64,000 bases of DNA from an uncultured Bacilli bacterium (GCA_934130175.1 CAKOXP010000008.1:181-64180), one strand, 5' to 3'; shown: positions 2,390 through 59,591, counted from the stretch's first letter. Numbers and translations are program-made. Notes: a model not told the origin generated them from the sequence alone.

Positions 2390-3421
2390 TTAATACGAAA
2401 TATTTGTTTTTGCAACTTCTATAACTGGACGAACACCTCTTTTGCCATAAAATAGCTCACCAGTTTCATCAGAGTTCCCATCTCCTGTTGAATCAACGTA
2501 GAAAGCATAAATTCCACGAAATTCAGTAAAGAGTAACATAGCCATGTTTGTTTTATACATATCTAGTTTAGAAGAATGTGCATTTTCTAACCAATATCCA
2601 TATGCATCATTTTTATTGTTTGAACTATATTGAGTACTTTCCATATAATAACTATATTGTTTTAAAATACCTTTTTGAAATGTACCATAATTTGAAATTG
2701 ATTTTTTTAAATCTTCAATAGCTAATAATCTTGCAGCATACCCATTATAAGAAAAAGTTGTTGGTAACGTTCCAGATGATGCTATATTAGTACCAATTTC
2801 ATTTGTTATCGTTCGAGATATATTTTTTAAATTCACATTCTTCCATTGCTCTACAGTTGGTAATTGTTTAATAGCCGTTACTGGTCCATTATTATTACTA
2901 CTACTTTCATCATAAGCAATTCCTACTGTACTTGTAGGATTTGCACCATCTACGTTACTATAATAAATCAACATTGCAGTATCATCATCTAAATCTCCTA
3001 GATAGTAAAATCTCTCTGTTGCTTCATTATATACTCCATCTCCATTTACATCACAGTCAAATGCATCTCCATTTGTTAATGTTCCCTTTGTTCCAAGACT
3101 TCCATAGGTTATAGCATCACCAAGTGAATAACCATCTGCTAAACAATAACCAGAGGTATCAGTATTTTCACATTTTTCTGTATGAAGACTTGTCGCACGC
3201 TTACACAATACTGGTTTACAATAAGAACCTTTTGGACATTCTTTTTTAGCTTCTTCTATCTTCTTTGTTGCTTTAGTACTTATTTTATCTAAAGCATCTT
3301 GAACATTTGTTGCCCCTAAATTGTCCGTATCTACATAATTTATACTTGTTGCCTGTATAATTGTCGATGCATATACACTAGTTCCGAGTAGTAGTAAACT
3401 AACTACCCCCCCCCAGTACAA
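2390..3421 (-). CDS. Secreted protein with an NVQDALD N-module and a Cys-rich/GVRPVIEV C-module; native 5' end (ATG 3464) is out of frame at a G9 tract
   Basis: The track ORF starts at a TTG. Upstream, SD GGAAGGTG-5nt-ATG(3464) opens MKIIKLIMKNNNYKFVLGGGS*, which stops at 3399-3401. G8 or G11 would fuse it to ...VVSLLLLGTSVYASTIIQ (a good signal peptide). The C-terminal 270 aa are paralogous to 53749..55143 and 58197..59591. Confidence 0.75.
   Translation of the reverse strand: MYWGGVVSLLLLGTSVYASTIIQATSINYVDTDNLGATNVQDALDKISTKATKKIEEAKKECPKGSYCKPVLCKRATSLHTEKCENTDTSGYCLADGYSLGDAITYGSLGTKGTLTNGDAFDCDVNGDGVYNEATERFYYLGDLDDDTAMLIYYSNVDGANPTSTVGIAYDESSSNNNGPVTAIKQLPTVEQWKNVNLKNISRTITNEIGTNIASSGTLPTTFSYNGYAARLLAIEDLKKSISNYGTFQKGILKQYSYYMESTQYSSNNKNDAYGYWLENAHSSKLDMYKTNMAMLLFTEFRGIYAFYVDSTGDGNSDETGELFYGKRGVRPVIEVAKTNISY
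3406..3414 (-). repeat. Homopolymeric G9 (C9 on the plus strand) in the 5' coding region
   Basis: Counted base by base. It is one of only two 9-nt G/C runs noticed in this AT-rich window. Confidence 0.95.
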
Positions 3422-3605
3422 ATTTGTAATTATTATTTTTCATTATCAACTTTATTATTTTCATCTTTTCACCTTCCATTATAATTAAAGTATACTTTAT
3501 TTTTTAATTCATTTCAATTGATTTTCACTAAATTTACAACTTAACTTCACTCTATCTTCACAAAAAATGAATAGACTTATTATGTACAGAAAGGAGATAT
3601 ATAAA

Positions 3606-14413: not shown

Positions 14414-14487
14414 AAAAACACCAATCTTTCAATTCTTATTATCAAGCTAATTATAGCATAGTATTGTAAGATTTTTTCTAGTTTTTT

Positions 14488-14518
14488 CTTGTTTAATTTA
14501 TCGAACATGTGTTATATT
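14488..14518 (+). promoter_or_regulatory. Unit 1 promoter with overlapping LexA (Cheo-box-like) operator CGAACATGTGTTAT (14502..14515)
   Basis: TTGTTT -35, 17-18 nt spacer, TTATAT/TATATT -10. The 14-mer matches the Firmicute consensus CGAACATATGTTCG at 11 of 14 positions and overlaps the -10. Confidence 0.55.
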
Positions 14519-14583
14519 TAACTTGGAACATTTAGTTGTTGAGTGTCTACCTCTAATCTTTATAGAGAGGAGGTTATTGATAT

Positions 14584-14667
14584 ATGGGAAAGAAAGATTT
14601 TTTAATTACTATCTTACTCACTATTATCATATTATTAATAGCTCTACTCTTCATAACATTGAAGTAG
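14584..14667 (+). CDS. 27-aa hydrophobic peptide MGKKDFLITILLTIIILLIALLFITLK (type I toxin-like)
   Basis: SD AGAGGAGG 8-9 nt upstream. The ORF length is conserved in all three units despite 4 substitutions. Single TM flanked by Lys. Confidence 0.6.
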   Translation: MGKKDFLITILLTIIILLIALLFITLK

Positions 14668-14676
14668 TATCACCTA

Positions 14677-14766
14677 TAAATAAAAACGGCACTCATCTCT
14701 TTCAAAGATAAGTGCCTCTCAAACAAATTTGGGTAGACATTCTACTTGTCAAACTGAATGTTCCCC
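14677..14766 (-). ncRNA. Candidate antisense RNA, unit 1 (3' end defined by a minus-strand terminator at 14677..14716)
   Basis: Minus strand reads GGCACTTATCT-ttgaaag-AGATGAGTGCC followed by gtttttattta. A possible TAAAAT -10 lies at 14773..14778, so the 5' end is uncertain. Confidence 0.3.
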
Positions 14767-14836
14767 TTTTTTATTTTATGCAAGAATACTTGCTACATAC
14801 ATAATAACATATTCTTTTTATTTTTTCTAGTTTTTT

Positions 14837-14867
14837 CTTGTTTAATTTATCGAACATGTGTTATATT
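14837..14867 (+). promoter_or_regulatory. Unit 2 promoter with LexA-box-like operator (14851..14864)
   Basis: -35 TTGTTT at 14838..14843, -10 at 14861..14867, CGAACATGTGTTAT overlapping it. Confidence 0.55.
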
Positions 14868-14932
14868 TGACTTGGAACATTTAGTTGTTGAGTGTCTACC
14901 TCTAATCTTTATAGAGAGGAGGTCTTTGATAT

Positions 14933-15016
14933 ATGGGAAAGAAAGATTTTTTAATCTTTATCTTACTTATTATTATCATTTTACTTATAAGCCTACTCTT
15001 CATTATCTTGAAGTAG
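14933..15016 (+). CDS. 27-aa hydrophobic peptide MGKKDFLIFILLIIIILLISLLFIILK (type I toxin-like)
   Basis: SD AGAGGAGG. Nucleotide-identical ORF in unit 3. Confidence 0.6.
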   Translation: MGKKDFLIFILLIIIILLISLLFIILK

Positions 15017-15024
15017 TAAATCCT

Positions 15025-15116
15025 ATAAATAAAAATGACACTCATCCGCAAAGATAAGTGTCTATCAAACCAATTTAGGTAGACATTCAACTAAGCAAAA
15101 AAACTGAATGTTCCCT
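15025..15116 (-). ncRNA. Candidate antisense RNA, unit 2 (terminator 15025..15062)
   Basis: Minus strand reads GACACTTATC-tttgcg-GATGAGTGTC followed by atttttattta. It overlaps the 3' UTR and terminator of the peptide mRNA. Confidence 0.3.
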
Positions 15117-15187
15117 TTTTTTATTTTATGCAAGAATACTTGCTACATACATGATAACATACTCTTTCTATTTTTTCTAGTTTTTTT

Positions 15188-15218
15188 CTTGTTTATTTTA
15201 TCGAACATGTGTTATATT
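15188..15218 (+). promoter_or_regulatory. Unit 3 promoter with LexA-box-like operator (15202..15215)
   Basis: Same architecture as units 1 and 2. Confidence 0.55.
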
Positions 15219-15283
15219 TGACTTGGAACATTTAGTTGTTGAGTGTCTACCTCTAATCTAGAAAGAGAGGAGGTCTTTGATAT

Positions 15284-15367
15284 ATGGGAAAGAAAGATTT
15301 TTTAATCTTTATCTTACTTATTATTATCATTTTACTTATAAGCCTACTCTTCATTATCTTGAAGTAG
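15284..15367 (+). CDS. 27-aa hydrophobic peptide, identical to the unit 2 peptide
   Basis: SD AGAGGAGG; ATG 15284, TAG 15365-15367. Confidence 0.6.
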   Translation: MGKKDFLIFILLIIIILLISLLFIILK

Positions 15368-15375
15368 TAAATCCT

Positions 15376-15465
15376 ATAAATAAAAATGACACTCATCCGC
15401 AAAGATAAGTGTCAAATCCTAACATTTAGGTAGACATTCAACTTTGCAAAACTGAATGCTTTCCT
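15376..15465 (-). ncRNA. Candidate antisense RNA, unit 3 (terminator 15376..15413)
   Basis: Same hairpin and T-run as unit 2. Confidence 0.3.
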
Positions 15466-15545
15466 TTTTTTATTTTATGCAAGAATACTTGCTACATACA
15501 TAGTATCATAATATTAATTTTTTTTCAATATATGCTTTCTTAAGA

Positions 15546-17914: not shown

Positions 17915-18457
17915 TCAAATAGCATATGATATTGTTCCTATTACTTTGGCACTTGTTATCTTGGTACCAGTTAGCTCTCTTAACATAACATCACCATTTG
18001 GTTTAATTGTCAAGAATGCGGTATTACTAACACTACTTTCTTGCCAAACAATTCCATCAACCTGTTGTCTTGGTCTGTAATCAGTTGGTATATTAAATAC
18101 AACATTTGTAGTTGGTGATTTTACGTAAACCCCAATATTTATAATGACTGTACTAGATGTTTTTGCATAATAATTATTATGCAGAGAATCATTTATTAAA
18201 GTATAACCACTATTAAAATTTGAAACTATAGTCTTTTTTGTTTCTAACTTGTCTTCAATACTTGAAAGCCTAGAATTTACTTTACCACAAGTTCCATCAA
18301 TAGCTGCTTGAACGTTAGCAGCACCTAAGGATGAATTATCTGAATAACCAACTTTACTGGCACTAATTGCATAAGTTGTTGCAGCATACGTACAGCCTAT
18401 AGAAATAATACCAGTTATTAGTGTAGTAATTATAATTATCATAATTGTTTTCTTCAT
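17915..18457 (-). CDS. Small secreted protein, NVQAAIDG N-module with a unique C-terminal domain (paralog of 32339..32878)
   Basis: SD AGGTGGTG then ATG 18457. Signal peptide ...SIGCTYA, then ATTYAISASKVGYSDNSSLGAANVQAAIDGTCGKV. Confidence 0.7.
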   Translation of the reverse strand: MKKTIMIIIITTLITGIISIGCTYAATTYAISASKVGYSDNSSLGAANVQAAIDGTCGKVNSRLSSIEDKLETKKTIVSNFNSGYTLINDSLHNNYYAKTSSTVIINIGVYVKSPTTNVVFNIPTDYRPRQQVDGIVWQESSVSNTAFLTIKPNGDVMLRELTGTKITSAKVIGTISYAI

Positions 18458-18490
18458 CTTAGACACCACCTATTATACTATTCTAAGATT

Positions 18491-18504
18491 ATTATACCCA
18501 CCCC
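18491..18504 (-). promoter_or_regulatory. -10 TATAAT preceded by an interrupted G tract (GGGGTGGG)
   Basis: Minus strand reads TTGATT-18nt-TATAAT. Homologous to the G9-containing promoter at 32913..32927. Confidence 0.5.
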
Positions 18505-32338: not shown

Positions 32339-32878
32339 TTACCTTGCATACAATCTAATAATTTCAAAATGATTTTGATTTACATTTGATGATTTTGACG
32401 TTGTTCCTACCACAATGCTTTTTTTTGTTATTGAAATAGCACCATCCCAGTAATAACCATAGTTACTACTATAGGAATAAAGTTTACTACTAAACTTTCC
32501 AGTTGATGTAGGTGGAATTTGATAACTGTTAGCAGAATAGGCCCAAAAGTTAGAAACATAGATTATTGGAACAATTTCTGTATATTCTGACAAATCAATA
32601 TTATAAGTAAGTGAGTAGCCGTTGCTGGTATCTTTAGTTGGTGTTGGTAGAGTTATTTCAATCAAATTCTTGTTAAGCTTATTTGCTAAAACAGTACTTA
32701 CCTTACTACAAGTTCCATCGATTGCTGCTTGAACGTTATCTGCTCCTAAACTGGAATTGTCTGTATAACCAATATTTGAAGCATTAATTGCATATGTTGT
32801 TGCAGCATATGATCCACTTATTGAAATTACACAGGTAATTGTCGCTATTATAAGTGTTATTCTTAAACTCTTTTTCAT
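32339..32878 (-). CDS. Small secreted protein, NVQAAIDG N-module with a unique C-terminal domain (paralog of 17915..18457)
   Basis: SD GGTAGGTG then ATG 32878. Signal peptide ...SISGSYA, then ATTYAINASNIGYTDNSSLGADNVQAAIDGTCSKV. Confidence 0.7.
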   Translation of the reverse strand: MKKSLRITLIIATITCVISISGSYAATTYAINASNIGYTDNSSLGADNVQAAIDGTCSKVSTVLANKLNKNLIEITLPTPTKDTSNGYSLTYNIDLSEYTEIVPIIYVSNFWAYSANSYQIPPTSTGKFSSKLYSYSSNYGYYWDGAISITKKSIVVGTTSKSSNVNQNHFEIIRLYAR

Positions 32879-32912
32879 CTTAGATATCACCTACCATACT
32901 ATATCTAAGATT

Positions 32913-32927
32913 ATTATACCCCCCCCC
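32913..32927 (-). promoter_or_regulatory. -10 TATAAT immediately preceded by a G9 tract in the promoter spacer
   Basis: Minus strand reads TTGATT-tttttt-gcctc-GGGGGGGGG-TATAAT, a 20-nt spacer versus 18 nt in the paralogous promoter. Confidence 0.55.
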
Positions 32928-42356: not shown

Positions 42357-42591
42357 ATATATCCTCCTTACAAAAAAAATAACTATAATCTAAGGACGAA
42401 TTATCGCGGTACCACCTTAGTTTATAGTTATTTATTACTTACTATACACTTATATTCTTTTAACGCAAGAATTACGCTTACTATTAATAAGGACTCCTAA
42501 GACGAATTCGTATAATTATATTATCTGTTTCCACCAACCACAGACTCTCTAAAAATAATCATTATATTACTACTTCTTAATCAACATCGAT
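42357..42591 (-). promoter_or_regulatory. T-box leader (Phe) with terminator/antiterminator
   Basis: Minus strand has an extended -10 TGaTATAAT (42598..42606). Stem I-like elements are CGATGTTGA, AGAGAG and GGTGGAAAC, and a GAA-UUC-G specifier candidate lies at 42504..42509. The T-box motif is AAGGTGGTACCGCG (42405..42418). The terminator is CTATAAACTAAGG...CCTTAGATTATAG followed by T8 (42371..42427). Confidence 0.85.
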
Positions 42592-42632
42592 AGCTGTATT
42601 ATATCACAAAAAGTACAAATTTACTAGTGTTT

Positions 42633-53748: not shown

Positions 53749-55143
53749 CTAATAATCAATATCAGTTTTAGCAACTTCTATTACTGGACGAACACCAAAA
53801 GAATAAGTGCTGGTAACATGATTTAACTCTAAACGACGATAATCAGCATCAATGGTCAAAACTGAAGAAAAATATAGAGAACCATGTGTTTCTAACCATT
53901 CACCTTTTGTCATTAAATCACCTGATGAATATTTTGTATTTTCCATTAGATATTTACATTTAGTACTCACTTCTCCCAATCCTCCATTATTTATTATAAC
54001 ATCACATCCTGCACTCATTTCTTGACCCGTTAATAATCGTGCTGCATAACCTTCATAACTAAATCCTGATTTTCTAACTATGCCTTCAGAATCTGTTATA
54101 TCTCTTATATTGCTTTTTAATCTTACATTTTTCCATTGATCTATTGTTGGTAATTGTTTTATTGCTGTTACTGGTCCATCAATATAATCTCTTGAATCAT
54201 AATTCTGAGCATTTGAATCATACGGATATACTGTTGAATTTGAAGGTTTTCCCTCGCTTACGTTATTATAATAGATTAACACTGCTGTTTTATCATCCGT
54301 TGTTGTTCCATTTATCATATCTGATACATAATAAAATCTTTCTGTTTCAGCATCATATATACTATCACCATTAACATCACAATCAAAAGCATCACCTGAT
54401 GCGAGTATTCCACTCTTTCCTAAATTACCATATGTTATTGTTGTAGTTTTCATACTTCCACTTGCTGTATAGCCATCTGCACCACAAAAGTGATACTCAT
54501 TTGTTTGGCTACATGTTTCTGTATGAAGTGTTGTTGCTCTTTTACATATTGCTGTTTTTGTTGGTGTTACTGTTTGAGTAGCTTCTAAACTAAGTTGAGC
54601 ATTAAATATTTTTCCCATTACTTCGTTTTCTGTATTATTATCTCCTGCTTTTGAGTCTATCCAAATTCTTAAACTATACTTAATAGTTTTTCCTTTTTCA
54701 ATTGTTCCTGAGTCTATTACTCTATCTGTTAATATTTTTGATTTTGATGCTGTTGCTTCTTCTCCATCTTTTAATAAAATATATCTTACTTTAGAGTCAG
54801 CTAATCTATCTTCATCTGCTATTGTTACATCTTCATTATTATCATTTGTATAAATATCTAGATCTTTTAATGATAAAGTATAACTACTTGTACTACTTTT
54901 ATTTGTTAATGTAAATGTATATTCTTTTGTAGTCATTCCTTGTCTATAACTTCTTGGTACTTCTTTTGTTAATTTTATTCCCTCACTTGTTGTATCATCT
55001 AATGTTAATTCTAAGTTTCCTGCTGTTATCTTGTTAATTATCTCTGATTTTTTAGTTATATTTAACCACGCATATGTTGTTCCTATTATTACTACTAGTG
55101 TTAGCACTAGTGCAACTACTAATATTTTTTTATTATTTTTCAT
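53749..55143 (-). CDS. Secreted two-module protein: TasA/SipW-type N-module plus Cys-rich DVNGD / GVRPVIEV C-module
   Basis: IIGTTYAWLNITKKSEIINKITAGNLELTL...FNAQLSLEATQ, then CKRATTLHTETC...GDAFDCDVNGDSIYD...GPVTAIKQLPT...GYAARLLT...GVRPVIEVAKTDIDY. Confidence 0.7.
   Translation of the reverse strand: MKNNKKILVVALVLTLVVIIGTTYAWLNITKKSEIINKITAGNLELTLDDTTSEGIKLTKEVPRSYRQGMTTKEYTFTLTNKSSTSSYTLSLKDLDIYTNDNNEDVTIADEDRLADSKVRYILLKDGEEATASKSKILTDRVIDSGTIEKGKTIKYSLRIWIDSKAGDNNTENEVMGKIFNAQLSLEATQTVTPTKTAICKRATTLHTETCSQTNEYHFCGADGYTASGSMKTTTITYGNLGKSGILASGDAFDCDVNGDSIYDAETERFYYVSDMINGTTTDDKTAVLIYYNNVSEGKPSNSTVYPYDSNAQNYDSRDYIDGPVTAIKQLPTIDQWKNVRLKSNIRDITDSEGIVRKSGFSYEGYAARLLTGQEMSAGCDVIINNGGLGEVSTKCKYLMENTKYSSGDLMTKGEWLETHGSLYFSSVLTIDADYRRLELNHVTSTYSFGVRPVIEVAKTDIDY
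54530..55143 (-). repeat. Direct repeat copy A (~610 bp, the N-module-coding part) matching 58978..59591
   Basis: Side-by-side reading shows roughly nine in ten identical positions (by eye, not computed). Confidence 0.8.
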
Positions 55144-58196: not shown

Positions 58197-59591
58197 TTAA
58201 TATTCGATATTTACTTTAGCAACTTCTATTGCAGGACGGACGCCACGATAACTTGCACTATTTACATATACGTAATCAATATATCGATAATTACCGCGAA
58301 CAAGCCAAGCATAATTTGAGCGTGATGAATCCGGAGTTTCTAACAATCCTCCGTAAGTAGCTAAACTATCAGATGAATATTTTGTATTTTCCATTAAATA
58401 TTTACATTTACTACTTAGTTCACCTTTTATATAACTTCCTACTATAACATCACAACCAGTACTTACTTCTTGGGTAGTTAATAGTCTTGCTGCATATCCT
58501 TCATAACTAAAGGCTGTTGGAAGATCTCCCGCAGTTGTTGTATTTCCTCCATTCTCATTTGTTATAGCTCTTGTTGTATTTGTTAGGTTTACGTTACTCC
58601 ATTGCTCTGTTGTTGGTAATTGTTTTATTGCTGTTACTGGGCCATTATTGTTAGTTCCACTTTCATCATATGCATATGCTGTTGAATTAGATGCCACTCC
58701 TCCACTTACATTATTATAATAGATTAATACCGCTGTATTATTATCTGTTGTAACTCCATTTGTTACATCTGATACATAATAAAATCTTTCTGTTTCAGAA
58801 TCATATAATCCATCCCCATTAACATCACAATCAAATGCATCTCCACTTGTTAGAACTCCTTTTGTTCCCAGATTTCCATAGGTCATTGCATCATTTAAGG
58901 CATATCCATCCGCTTGACAATATCCTGTTGCATCTTCATTAGAACAAGTTTCTGTATGAAGTGTTGTTGCTCTTTTACATACTGCTGTTTTTGTTGGGGT
59001 TACTGTTTGAGTAGCTTCTAAACTTAGTTGTGCGTTAAATACTTTTCCCATTACTTCTTCTTCTGTATTATTATCTCCTGCTTTTGAATCTATCCAGATT
59101 CTTAGACTATAAGTAATTGTTTTTCCTTTTTCTATTGTTCCTGAGTCTATTACTCTATCTGTTAATATTTTTGATTTTGCTGCAGTTGCTTCTTCTCCAT
59201 CTTTTAATAAAATATATCTTACTTTAGAATCAGCTAATCTATCTGCATCTGTTATTGCTACTTCTTCATTATTATCATTTGTATAAGTATCTAGATCTTT
59301 TAATGATAAAGTATAACTACTTGTACTACTTTTATTTGTTAATGTAAATGTATACTCTTCTGTTTTTATTCCTTGTTGATAACTCATTGGGATTGCTTTT
59401 ATTAATTTTATTCCTTCACTTGTTGTATCATCTAATACTAATTCTAAGTTTCCTGCTGTTATTTTATTTACTATATCTGAATTCTTTGTTAGTCTTAACC
59501 ATGCATATGTTGTTCCTATTATTACTACTAGGATTAATACTATAGCTATTACTAAAAGTTTTGCATTTCCTATTTTTTTCTTTTCTTCCAT
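58197..59591 (-). CDS. Secreted two-module protein, paralog of 53749..55143
   Basis: Same N-module. The C-module CKRATTLHTETC...GDAFDCDVNGDGLYD...GVRPAIEVAKVNIEY is closer to that of 2390..3421. Confidence 0.7.
   Translation of the reverse strand: MEEKKKIGNAKLLVIAIVLILVVIIGTTYAWLRLTKNSDIVNKITAGNLELVLDDTTSEGIKLIKAIPMSYQQGIKTEEYTFTLTNKSSTSSYTLSLKDLDTYTNDNNEEVAITDADRLADSKVRYILLKDGEEATAAKSKILTDRVIDSGTIEKGKTITYSLRIWIDSKAGDNNTEEEVMGKVFNAQLSLEATQTVTPTKTAVCKRATTLHTETCSNEDATGYCQADGYALNDAMTYGNLGTKGVLTSGDAFDCDVNGDGLYDSETERFYYVSDVTNGVTTDNNTAVLIYYNNVSGGVASNSTAYAYDESGTNNNGPVTAIKQLPTTEQWSNVNLTNTTRAITNENGGNTTTAGDLPTAFSYEGYAARLLTTQEVSTGCDVIVGSYIKGELSSKCKYLMENTKYSSDSLATYGGLLETPDSSRSNYAWLVRGNYRYIDYVYVNSASYRGVRPAIEVAKVNIEY
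58978..59591 (-). repeat. Direct repeat copy B matching 54530..55143
   Basis: See copy A. The two copies are offset by 4448 bp. Confidence 0.8.

Follow-up and report, generated by a model that had tools for sequence, protein, structure and literature searches.

A G9 tract divides the signal peptide of a predicted secreted protein: a probable phase-variation locus in an uncultured gut Bacilli bacterium

The window, by which we mean the whole 64,000-nt stretch of DNA analyzed here (GCA_934130175.1, CAKOXP010000008.1:181-64180), comes from an uncultured Bacilli bacterium of the human gut. The contigs that carry the locus derive from Hadza and other stool metagenomes. In a GTDB scan, the relatives are MAGs labeled Bacilli, 'Tenericutes', Mycoplasma sp. 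CAG:877 and Clostridium sp. CAG:433, and the best match is 51% identical. On the minus strand near the left end of the window, the gene of a predicted secreted protein is divided by an uninterrupted run of nine guanines (Table 1). The Shine-Dalgarno sequence GGAAGGTG (3477-3470) is followed after 5 nt by an ATG (3464-3462), whose frame extends for 21 codons through the G9 tract to a TAG at 3401-3399, two codons beyond it. The body of the gene lies in the +1 frame as part of a 343-aa ORF (2390-3421) that opens with a TTG and has no purine-rich Shine-Dalgarno sequence upstream. Reading of the minus strand confirms the initial annotation on both counts, the ribosome-binding site, ATG and early stop in one frame and the 343-aa body with its TTG-only start in the other. 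The promoter-like site upstream of the ATG is kept in every allele fetched.

Table 1. Features of the G9-split gene, the second G9 tract, the interrupted tract and the paralogous genes in the window.
Feature	Position	Strand	Basis and remarks
Promoter-like TTGAAA-17 nt-TATACT, without G tract	3489..3517	-	consensus scan, 10/12 matches; consensus match alone
Shine-Dalgarno sequence GGAAGGTG	3470..3477	-	direct reading; ATG 3464 lies 5 nt downstream
Frame-0 mini-ORF MKIIKLIMKNNNYKFVLGGGS, then stop; signal-peptide n-region severed by the frameshift	3399..3464	-	ORF reading
G9 homopolymer (C9 on the plus strand)	3406..3414	-	16 codons past the ATG
Hydrophobic core and cleavage region VVSLLLLGTSVYA	3368..3406	-	+1 frame
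Gene body, 338 codons and stop, +1 frame; predicted secreted DUF6273-like protein	2390..3406	-	ORF
Interrupted tract GGGGTGGG; TTGATT (18520-18515), 18-nt spacer, TATAAT (18496-18491)	18497..18504	-	same promoter module
179-aa predicted secreted protein P0146	32339..32878	-	mature N-terminal motif A.SI.Y.D...LGA.NVQ.A.D in common with the G9-split gene
Second G9 tract in a 20-nt spacer, TTGATT (32944-32939) / TATAAT (32918-32913)	32919..32927	-	sequence reading
464-aa paralog, camelysin/TasA-like N-terminus, without G tract	53749..55143	-	C-terminal ~275 aa in common with the G9-split gene
Second 464-aa paralog, without G tract	58197..59591	-	53% identical to the body of the G9-split gene

Removal of one G fuses the two frames. 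The repaired product reads MKIIKLIMKNNNYKFVLGGVVSLLLLGTSVYA/ST (junction part ...FVLGGVVSLLLLGTSVYA/ST...) and has the build of a Sec-type signal peptide, with a lysine-rich n-region, a hydrophobic core and a V-Y-A cleavage motif; its predicted mature N-terminus is STIIQATSINYVDTDNLGATNVQDALDK. Tracts of G8 or G11 are in frame (ON) and tracts of G9 or G10 out of frame (OFF), and the window is in the OFF state, as had been proposed, with the G9 reading ending at TAG 3401-3399. Homopolymer contingency loci are recognized by an uninterrupted mononucleotide run of at least ~7 nt in the 5' coding region, which is what the G9 tract is. The sequences flanking the tract are AAATTTGTACT on one side and TAGTTAGTTTAC on the other, and GGAGGTGGA plus one base, with the frame kept, is an example of a G9-length tract in a locked form.

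The initial annotation called a 9-nt G/C run highly unexpected in a genome this rich in A and T, and the base composition of the window bears this out. At 27.5% G+C, ~0.005 runs of at least nine C or G are expected under independent bases, and 33 of 1000 shuffles contain any run of at least 8 nt. The window holds two G/C runs of at least 6 nt, both exactly 9 nt long, and zero of 6-8 nt; at least one run of 6 nt or more occurs in 723 of the 1000 shuffles (72%). Runs in the window are thus either at most 5 nt or exactly 9 nt, a distribution that suggests selection against accidental slippery tracts outside switch loci.

The length of the coding tract was compared across metagenomes. Twenty other samples, whose assemblies were made with SPAdes, MEGAHIT or further pipelines, bring the number of distinct G9 contigs, window included, to 21. 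Routes free of bias toward G9 led to 14 of the contigs (the neighboring GlmM, FtsX and ABC genes, a protein starting 3' of the tract, and a DNA pattern with a free gap), and all 14 look-ups gave G9. The free-gap pattern, scanned against JGI metagenomes, matched a single contig, likewise G9. G8 and G10 were found solely through odd-length members of the clusters of close-allele proteins. G10 occurs in two samples (L145, ERZ27287192; L146, ERZ4560332), from which the proteins P0127 (272 aa) and P0143 (204 aa) derive, and the first of these contigs has 0 mismatches to the window over 150 nt on each side of the tract. G8 occurs in one assembly (L147, ERZ27287164), which is the DNA-verified ON state; compared with a G9 contig (L132), its 150-nt flanks show 0 mismatches upstream and 2 downstream. 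G9 and G10 both terminate at a TAG, and G8 restores the full-length ORF. The G8 contig encodes P0172 (305 aa), an in-frame fused protein MKITRLIRKNNNYKFVLGGVVSLLLL... that reads MKITRLIRKNNNYKFVLGGVVSLLLLGTSVCAST... and has the junction KFVLGGVVSLLLL, exactly the fusion of signal peptide and body that had been predicted for G8. A second in-frame protein, P0169 (352 aa, ...KFVLGGVVSLLFFGTSVFAQT), belongs to a diverged allele of the type of contig L048 and is known at the protein level. Furthermore, a natural G3AG8 variant (GGGAGGGGGGGG) from another lineage retains the same frame as G9.

Thus, G8, G9 and G10 occur on flanks that are otherwise the same, and polymorphism of tract length on unchanged flanks, seen here between samples, is a defining trait of contingency loci. 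A length fixed at G9 in all populations, which had been named as a finding that would speak against a switch, is contradicted by the G8 and G10 contigs. A homopolymer sequencing or assembly error with G8 as the true, in-frame sequence had been named as well, and homopolymers are indeed error-prone; one SPAdes contig (L020) terminates inside the coding tract and two contigs terminate beside the promoter tract described below. These terminations could reflect such errors, and they are also weak hints of heterogeneity within populations. However, G9 recurs in 20 other independent samples from several projects and assemblers and is therefore not an assembly error, Illumina consensus is reliable at 9 nt, and the interrupted paralogous tract and the differing tract lengths are cleanly resolved in the same data sets. 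We regard an error as extremely improbable.

The body of the gene is maintained by purifying selection, as judged from codon comparisons. The window and the L048 allele differ by a dS of 0.92, with dN/dS at 0.09 in the first 70 body codons and at 0.43 in the remainder, and body ORFs of 286-338 codons are intact across deeply diverged alleles at dN/dS of 0.09-0.5. The short upstream frame evolves like coding sequence as well, according to the comparison of its variant haplotypes. The L048 allele has the same arrangement with a different mini-ORF (MKILNLIRRDKNYKFVLGGGS, then stop), in which 4 of 10 nucleotide changes are synonymous, and contig L132 carries a third variant; neither the reading frame nor the positive charges are lost in any of the three haplotypes. 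In intact relatives, the n-region is the homolog of the mini-ORF, for example MGRIVKHLKNNYKIIIG.... The signal peptide is unbroken in relatives at ~50% identity (MGRIVKHLKNNYKIIIGIIIGVV...), and its n-region can be aligned with the mini-ORF, so that the gene of the window is genuinely frameshifted with respect to its ancestor.

These data also bear on the possibility that the frameshift is fixed in a decaying pseudogene, or that the body is translated alone from the TTG at 3421 (MYWGGVV...). Gene callers do report the 343-aa TTG ORF in every G9 contig, and the protein collection is without an in-frame version of the exact allele of the window. Decay is nevertheless excluded by the dN/dS values and by the intact body ORFs. 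A start at the TTG lacks a Shine-Dalgarno sequence and would drop the charged n-region that the other frame conserves; moreover, the L048-type allele has TCG in place of TTG, and its 10 upstream codons in the body frame are without a canonical start. The 343-aa TTG protein in the databases is therefore, on this codon evidence, a gene-caller artefact of the OFF state, and annotators should be cautioned that the public entry reflects that state. Taken together, a pseudogene or a TTG-initiated body is very unlikely. Termination-reinitiation was considered separately and rejected, there being no start codon near the stop.

Alleles of the gene are mosaic. Against contigs L022, L048 and L135, window positions 2390-3200 are nearly the same in the 5' part, and the alleles agree over the first ~60 mature residues; in parts of the C-terminal half, 30-residue windows drop to 10-30% identity. 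Breaks within or next to the gene are frequent among metagenome contigs. The mosaic pattern and the contig breaks suggest cassette-like recombination or mixtures of strains, and a hypervariable C-terminal half would fit an exposed, diversifying protein.

The body protein has 1424 homologs and no match in Pfam, NCBIfam or a PDB sequence profile. An AF2 model reaches a pLDDT of 72 and a pTM of 0.71. Foldseek returned no match with E below 1 in the PDB, and by fold the protein most resembles a DUF6273 protein from a myovirus, a gut phage (E 2e-4, TM 0.34). The protein does not reach the gathering score of the Pfam family DUF6273 (PF19789), and two relatives also stay below the threshold of 23.5 bits, P0046 with 22.1 and P0005 with 14. 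Judging from these models, the protein is thus DUF6273-like and not a demonstrated member of DUF6273. It contains no lipobox, LPXTG motif, or membrane anchor or segment, and a Sec-type signal peptide alone is evident. Hence, in place of the surface protein named in the initial annotation, it is best called a predicted secreted protein, a term that implies no surface location.

The second G9 tract of the window lies in a promoter spacer, downstream of the ftsZ terminator and upstream of a gene for a 179-aa secreted paralog. In 18 contigs of other samples, this promoter tract reads G8 in 3, G9 in 11, G9AG in 2 and G10 in 2, with at least three length changes within a single haplotype. Its spacer, 20 nt in the window, ranges from 18 to 21 nt across other samples, and the interrupted paralog has one of 18 nt. 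In its position and in its length polymorphism between populations, the tract corresponds to a promoter-spacer homopolymer switch of the porA / tp0126 type. The sequence-level features that define coding switches and promoter switches are therefore both present in the window. A comparison of the two tracts gives non-9 lengths in 0/14 look-ups for the coding tract vs 5/18 contigs for the promoter tract (one-sided Fisher ~0.04), from which it follows that the coding tract may be less mutable than the promoter tract, or under constraint. The same promoter module recurs with the interrupted tract GGGGTGGG downstream of rpmF and upstream of a gene for a 180-aa paralog (17915-18457). The interrupted tract is unchanged in 4 of 4 other samples and thus provides a natural locked control.

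G tracts in this position extend to related organisms. In related MAG species, 79 loci (280 kb) contain only four G runs of at least 7 nt, and all four lie on the sense strand in the spacer between the -35 (TTGACA, TTGATT or TTGCAA) and the -10 of family genes. Related gut Bacilli MAGs carry G9 or G10 tracts in the equivalent promoter position (TTGACA-19/20 nt-TATACT). In another strain, a further G9 promoter tract (contig L008, 4127-4135; TTGATT-19 nt-TATAAT) lies ~165 nt past the left end of the window, upstream of another small family gene, and adjoins an Rpn-type PD-(D/E)XK gene. As for the paralogs themselves, the C-terminal half of the 180-aa protein resembles phage minor tail proteins (phrog_3639, E 3e-8). 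In both 464-aa paralogs, a camelysin/TasA-like N-terminal domain (PF12389, E 8e-5) is joined to a DUF6273-like C-terminal domain, and their genes form part of a cell-envelope cluster that also encodes an LCP-like protein and a PBP. An inverted repeat (ATCTTAGATAT / ATATCTAAGAT) at 32877-32911 (minus strand), found also at 18458-18490, has an SD-like GGTAGGTG in its 13-nt loop and a 3' arm that overlaps the start codon. Its 7-bp core TCTTAGA/TCTAAGA is preserved in every copy of the promoter module, and the repeat may form a 5'-UTR hairpin that affects translation or mRNA stability.

We propose, with a probability of roughly 80%, that the G9-split gene is a contingency locus, that its G tract switches by slipped-strand mispairing and that the window captures the OFF state. 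This agrees with the translational phase-variation switch suggested by the initial annotation, and it is supported by the G8 (ON) and G9/G10 (OFF) alleles in metagenomes of other people. Transcription would probably start from the ordinary promoter without a G tract, and translation from the ATG at 3464. The tract is placed between the charged n-region and the hydrophobic core of the predicted Sec signal peptide. With G8 (or G11), the ribosome would read through to give a 357-aa (or 358-aa) precursor, destined for export and for cleavage behind VYA; a G9 or G10 tract would halt the ribosome after 20-21 codons, and the body would not be synthesized. Cells would move from one state to the other, in either direction, whenever DNA replication adds or drops a G, so each population should be a mixture that is mostly G9 (OFF) with an ON minority. 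In the same organism, the second G9 tract would set the -35/-10 spacing for a paralogous secreted protein.

The predominance of G9 can be read in a different way, namely as programmed recoding. In that case, G9 would be functional as it stands, and full-length protein would arise either because RNA polymerase slips and leaves some transcripts one G short, or because the ribosome slips by +1 on GGG-G. A same-frame G9 as the consensus in 21 contigs, across three mini-ORF haplotypes diverged to dS ~0.9, agrees with such a scheme, as do the uniform result of the 14 unbiased look-ups and the frame retained by the G3AG8 allele. However, in-frame G8 and other-frame G10 alleles exist in nature, so the site is not fixed and neither the shift site nor its frame is conserved, and the distant homologs at ~50% identity have uninterrupted signal peptides. 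No stimulatory RNA structure was detected near the tract (z = -1.5; 12 of 200 shuffles are as stable), and the frame-0 stop, two codons past the tract, lies away from the slip site and does not have the placement of a stimulatory element. In addition, bacterial transcriptional slippage is documented chiefly on runs of A or T. Mutational bias could also account for the dominance of G9: an equilibrium computed from published C. jejuni rates, which come from an unrelated organism, consists of ~15% G8, 49% G9 and 28% G10. With such an equilibrium, G9 would be expected as the consensus in nearly all samples, and we infer that the predominance of G9 is what a hypermutable G tract would give. Recoding as the sole explanation is hence quite unlikely.

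A combination of slippage-driven switching and recoding is conceivable, in which G9 would not be fully OFF and RNA-polymerase slippage or a +1 ribosomal slip would supply a constant trickle of full-length protein, with full expression from G8. We consider this unlikely. If true, the locus would be a three-level rheostat that unites recoding and phase variation, and the same logic might apply across the poly-G-controlled secreted protein family of uncultured gut Bacilli.

Homopolymer phase variation is textbook knowledge for the pathogens Neisseria, Campylobacter, Treponema and Mycoplasma. For Neisseria pilC, Jonsson et al. are said to have described in 1991 a poly-G tract in the signal-peptide coding region that sets the frame of an exported protein; pilC differs from the present case in that it belongs to a Gram-negative pathogen and encodes a pilus-associated adhesin of unrelated sequence. 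In Mycoplasma, homopolymer switches are found in the vlp promoters (poly-A) and in the vaa coding sequence (poly-A). As is proposed for the window, a low-GC Bacilli-related lineage controls a paralogous family of exported proteins by homopolymers in promoter spacers and coding regions. Unlike in the window, where cell-wall functions (UppP, PBP, LCP) are encoded, the Mycoplasma tracts are poly-A, the products are lipoproteins and the cells have no wall.

The G tracts of the sortase-pilin genes bbr_0113 and bbr_1889 in B. breve UCC2003, which are intragenic and divide the Sec signal from the body, are the closest known case (PMC9187656). B. breve, too, is Gram-positive and a gut commensal; a G tract parts two ORFs, one with the Sec signal and one with the body of the exported protein, the two are out of frame in the reference sequence, and a minority of in-frame cells arises by replication slippage (PMC9187656). 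It differs as a high-GC actinobacterium with tracts of G10-G12, and the product, an LPXTG pilin whose function is known, comes from the first gene of an operon (PMC9187656), whereas the gene described here is monocistronic and lies in a genome of 27% G+C, with a G9 tract and a DUF6273-like product that has no anchor motif. Poly-G tracts of C. jejuni have a modal length of 9, G8 and G9 being biased toward insertion and G10 and G11 toward deletion (PMC3401435). Similarities to the present locus are the AT-rich genome, this modal length, single-nucleotide steps, G8, G9 and G10 as common states and several tracts per genome (PMC3401435). However, C. jejuni is a proteobacterial pathogen whose tracts lie mostly in glycosyltransferase, capsule and flagellar-modification genes, and the measured switching rates are its own (PMC3401435). 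For T. pallidum tp0126, most molecules carry 9 G's, and 8 or fewer are permissive (PMC7864442). The tract at 32919-32927 resembles tp0126/tpr and N. meningitidis porA in that a G run between -35 and -10 sets the spacing by its length (PMC7864442). The species differ in phylum and gene family.

In the literature searched, no paper was found that ties phase variation to these gut lineages. Hence, the mechanism is well known and its occurrence in this uncultured gut lineage is new to that literature. Homopolymer phase variation is scarcely documented in uncultured gut commensals, and here a single 64-kb window contains a probable coding switch, a probable promoter switch and a naturally locked copy, and all three belong to one fast-evolving paralogous family of predicted secreted proteins. 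The ON/OFF state of these loci can be read directly from metagenomic reads, so that selection of commensal expression states in vivo by host immunity, phage or diet can be put to the test.

Further features of the window lie outside this family. An intergenic region at 14471-15510 consists of a 351-bp unit in three tandem copies (91% matches), with no convincing ORF and no Rfam match. At the left window edge (64-176), the 12-nt unit CCTTGTTCCAAC is repeated ~8 times. A T-box leader (42389-42593, minus strand; Rfam RF00230, 113.9 bits) is consistent with a Firmicutes origin.
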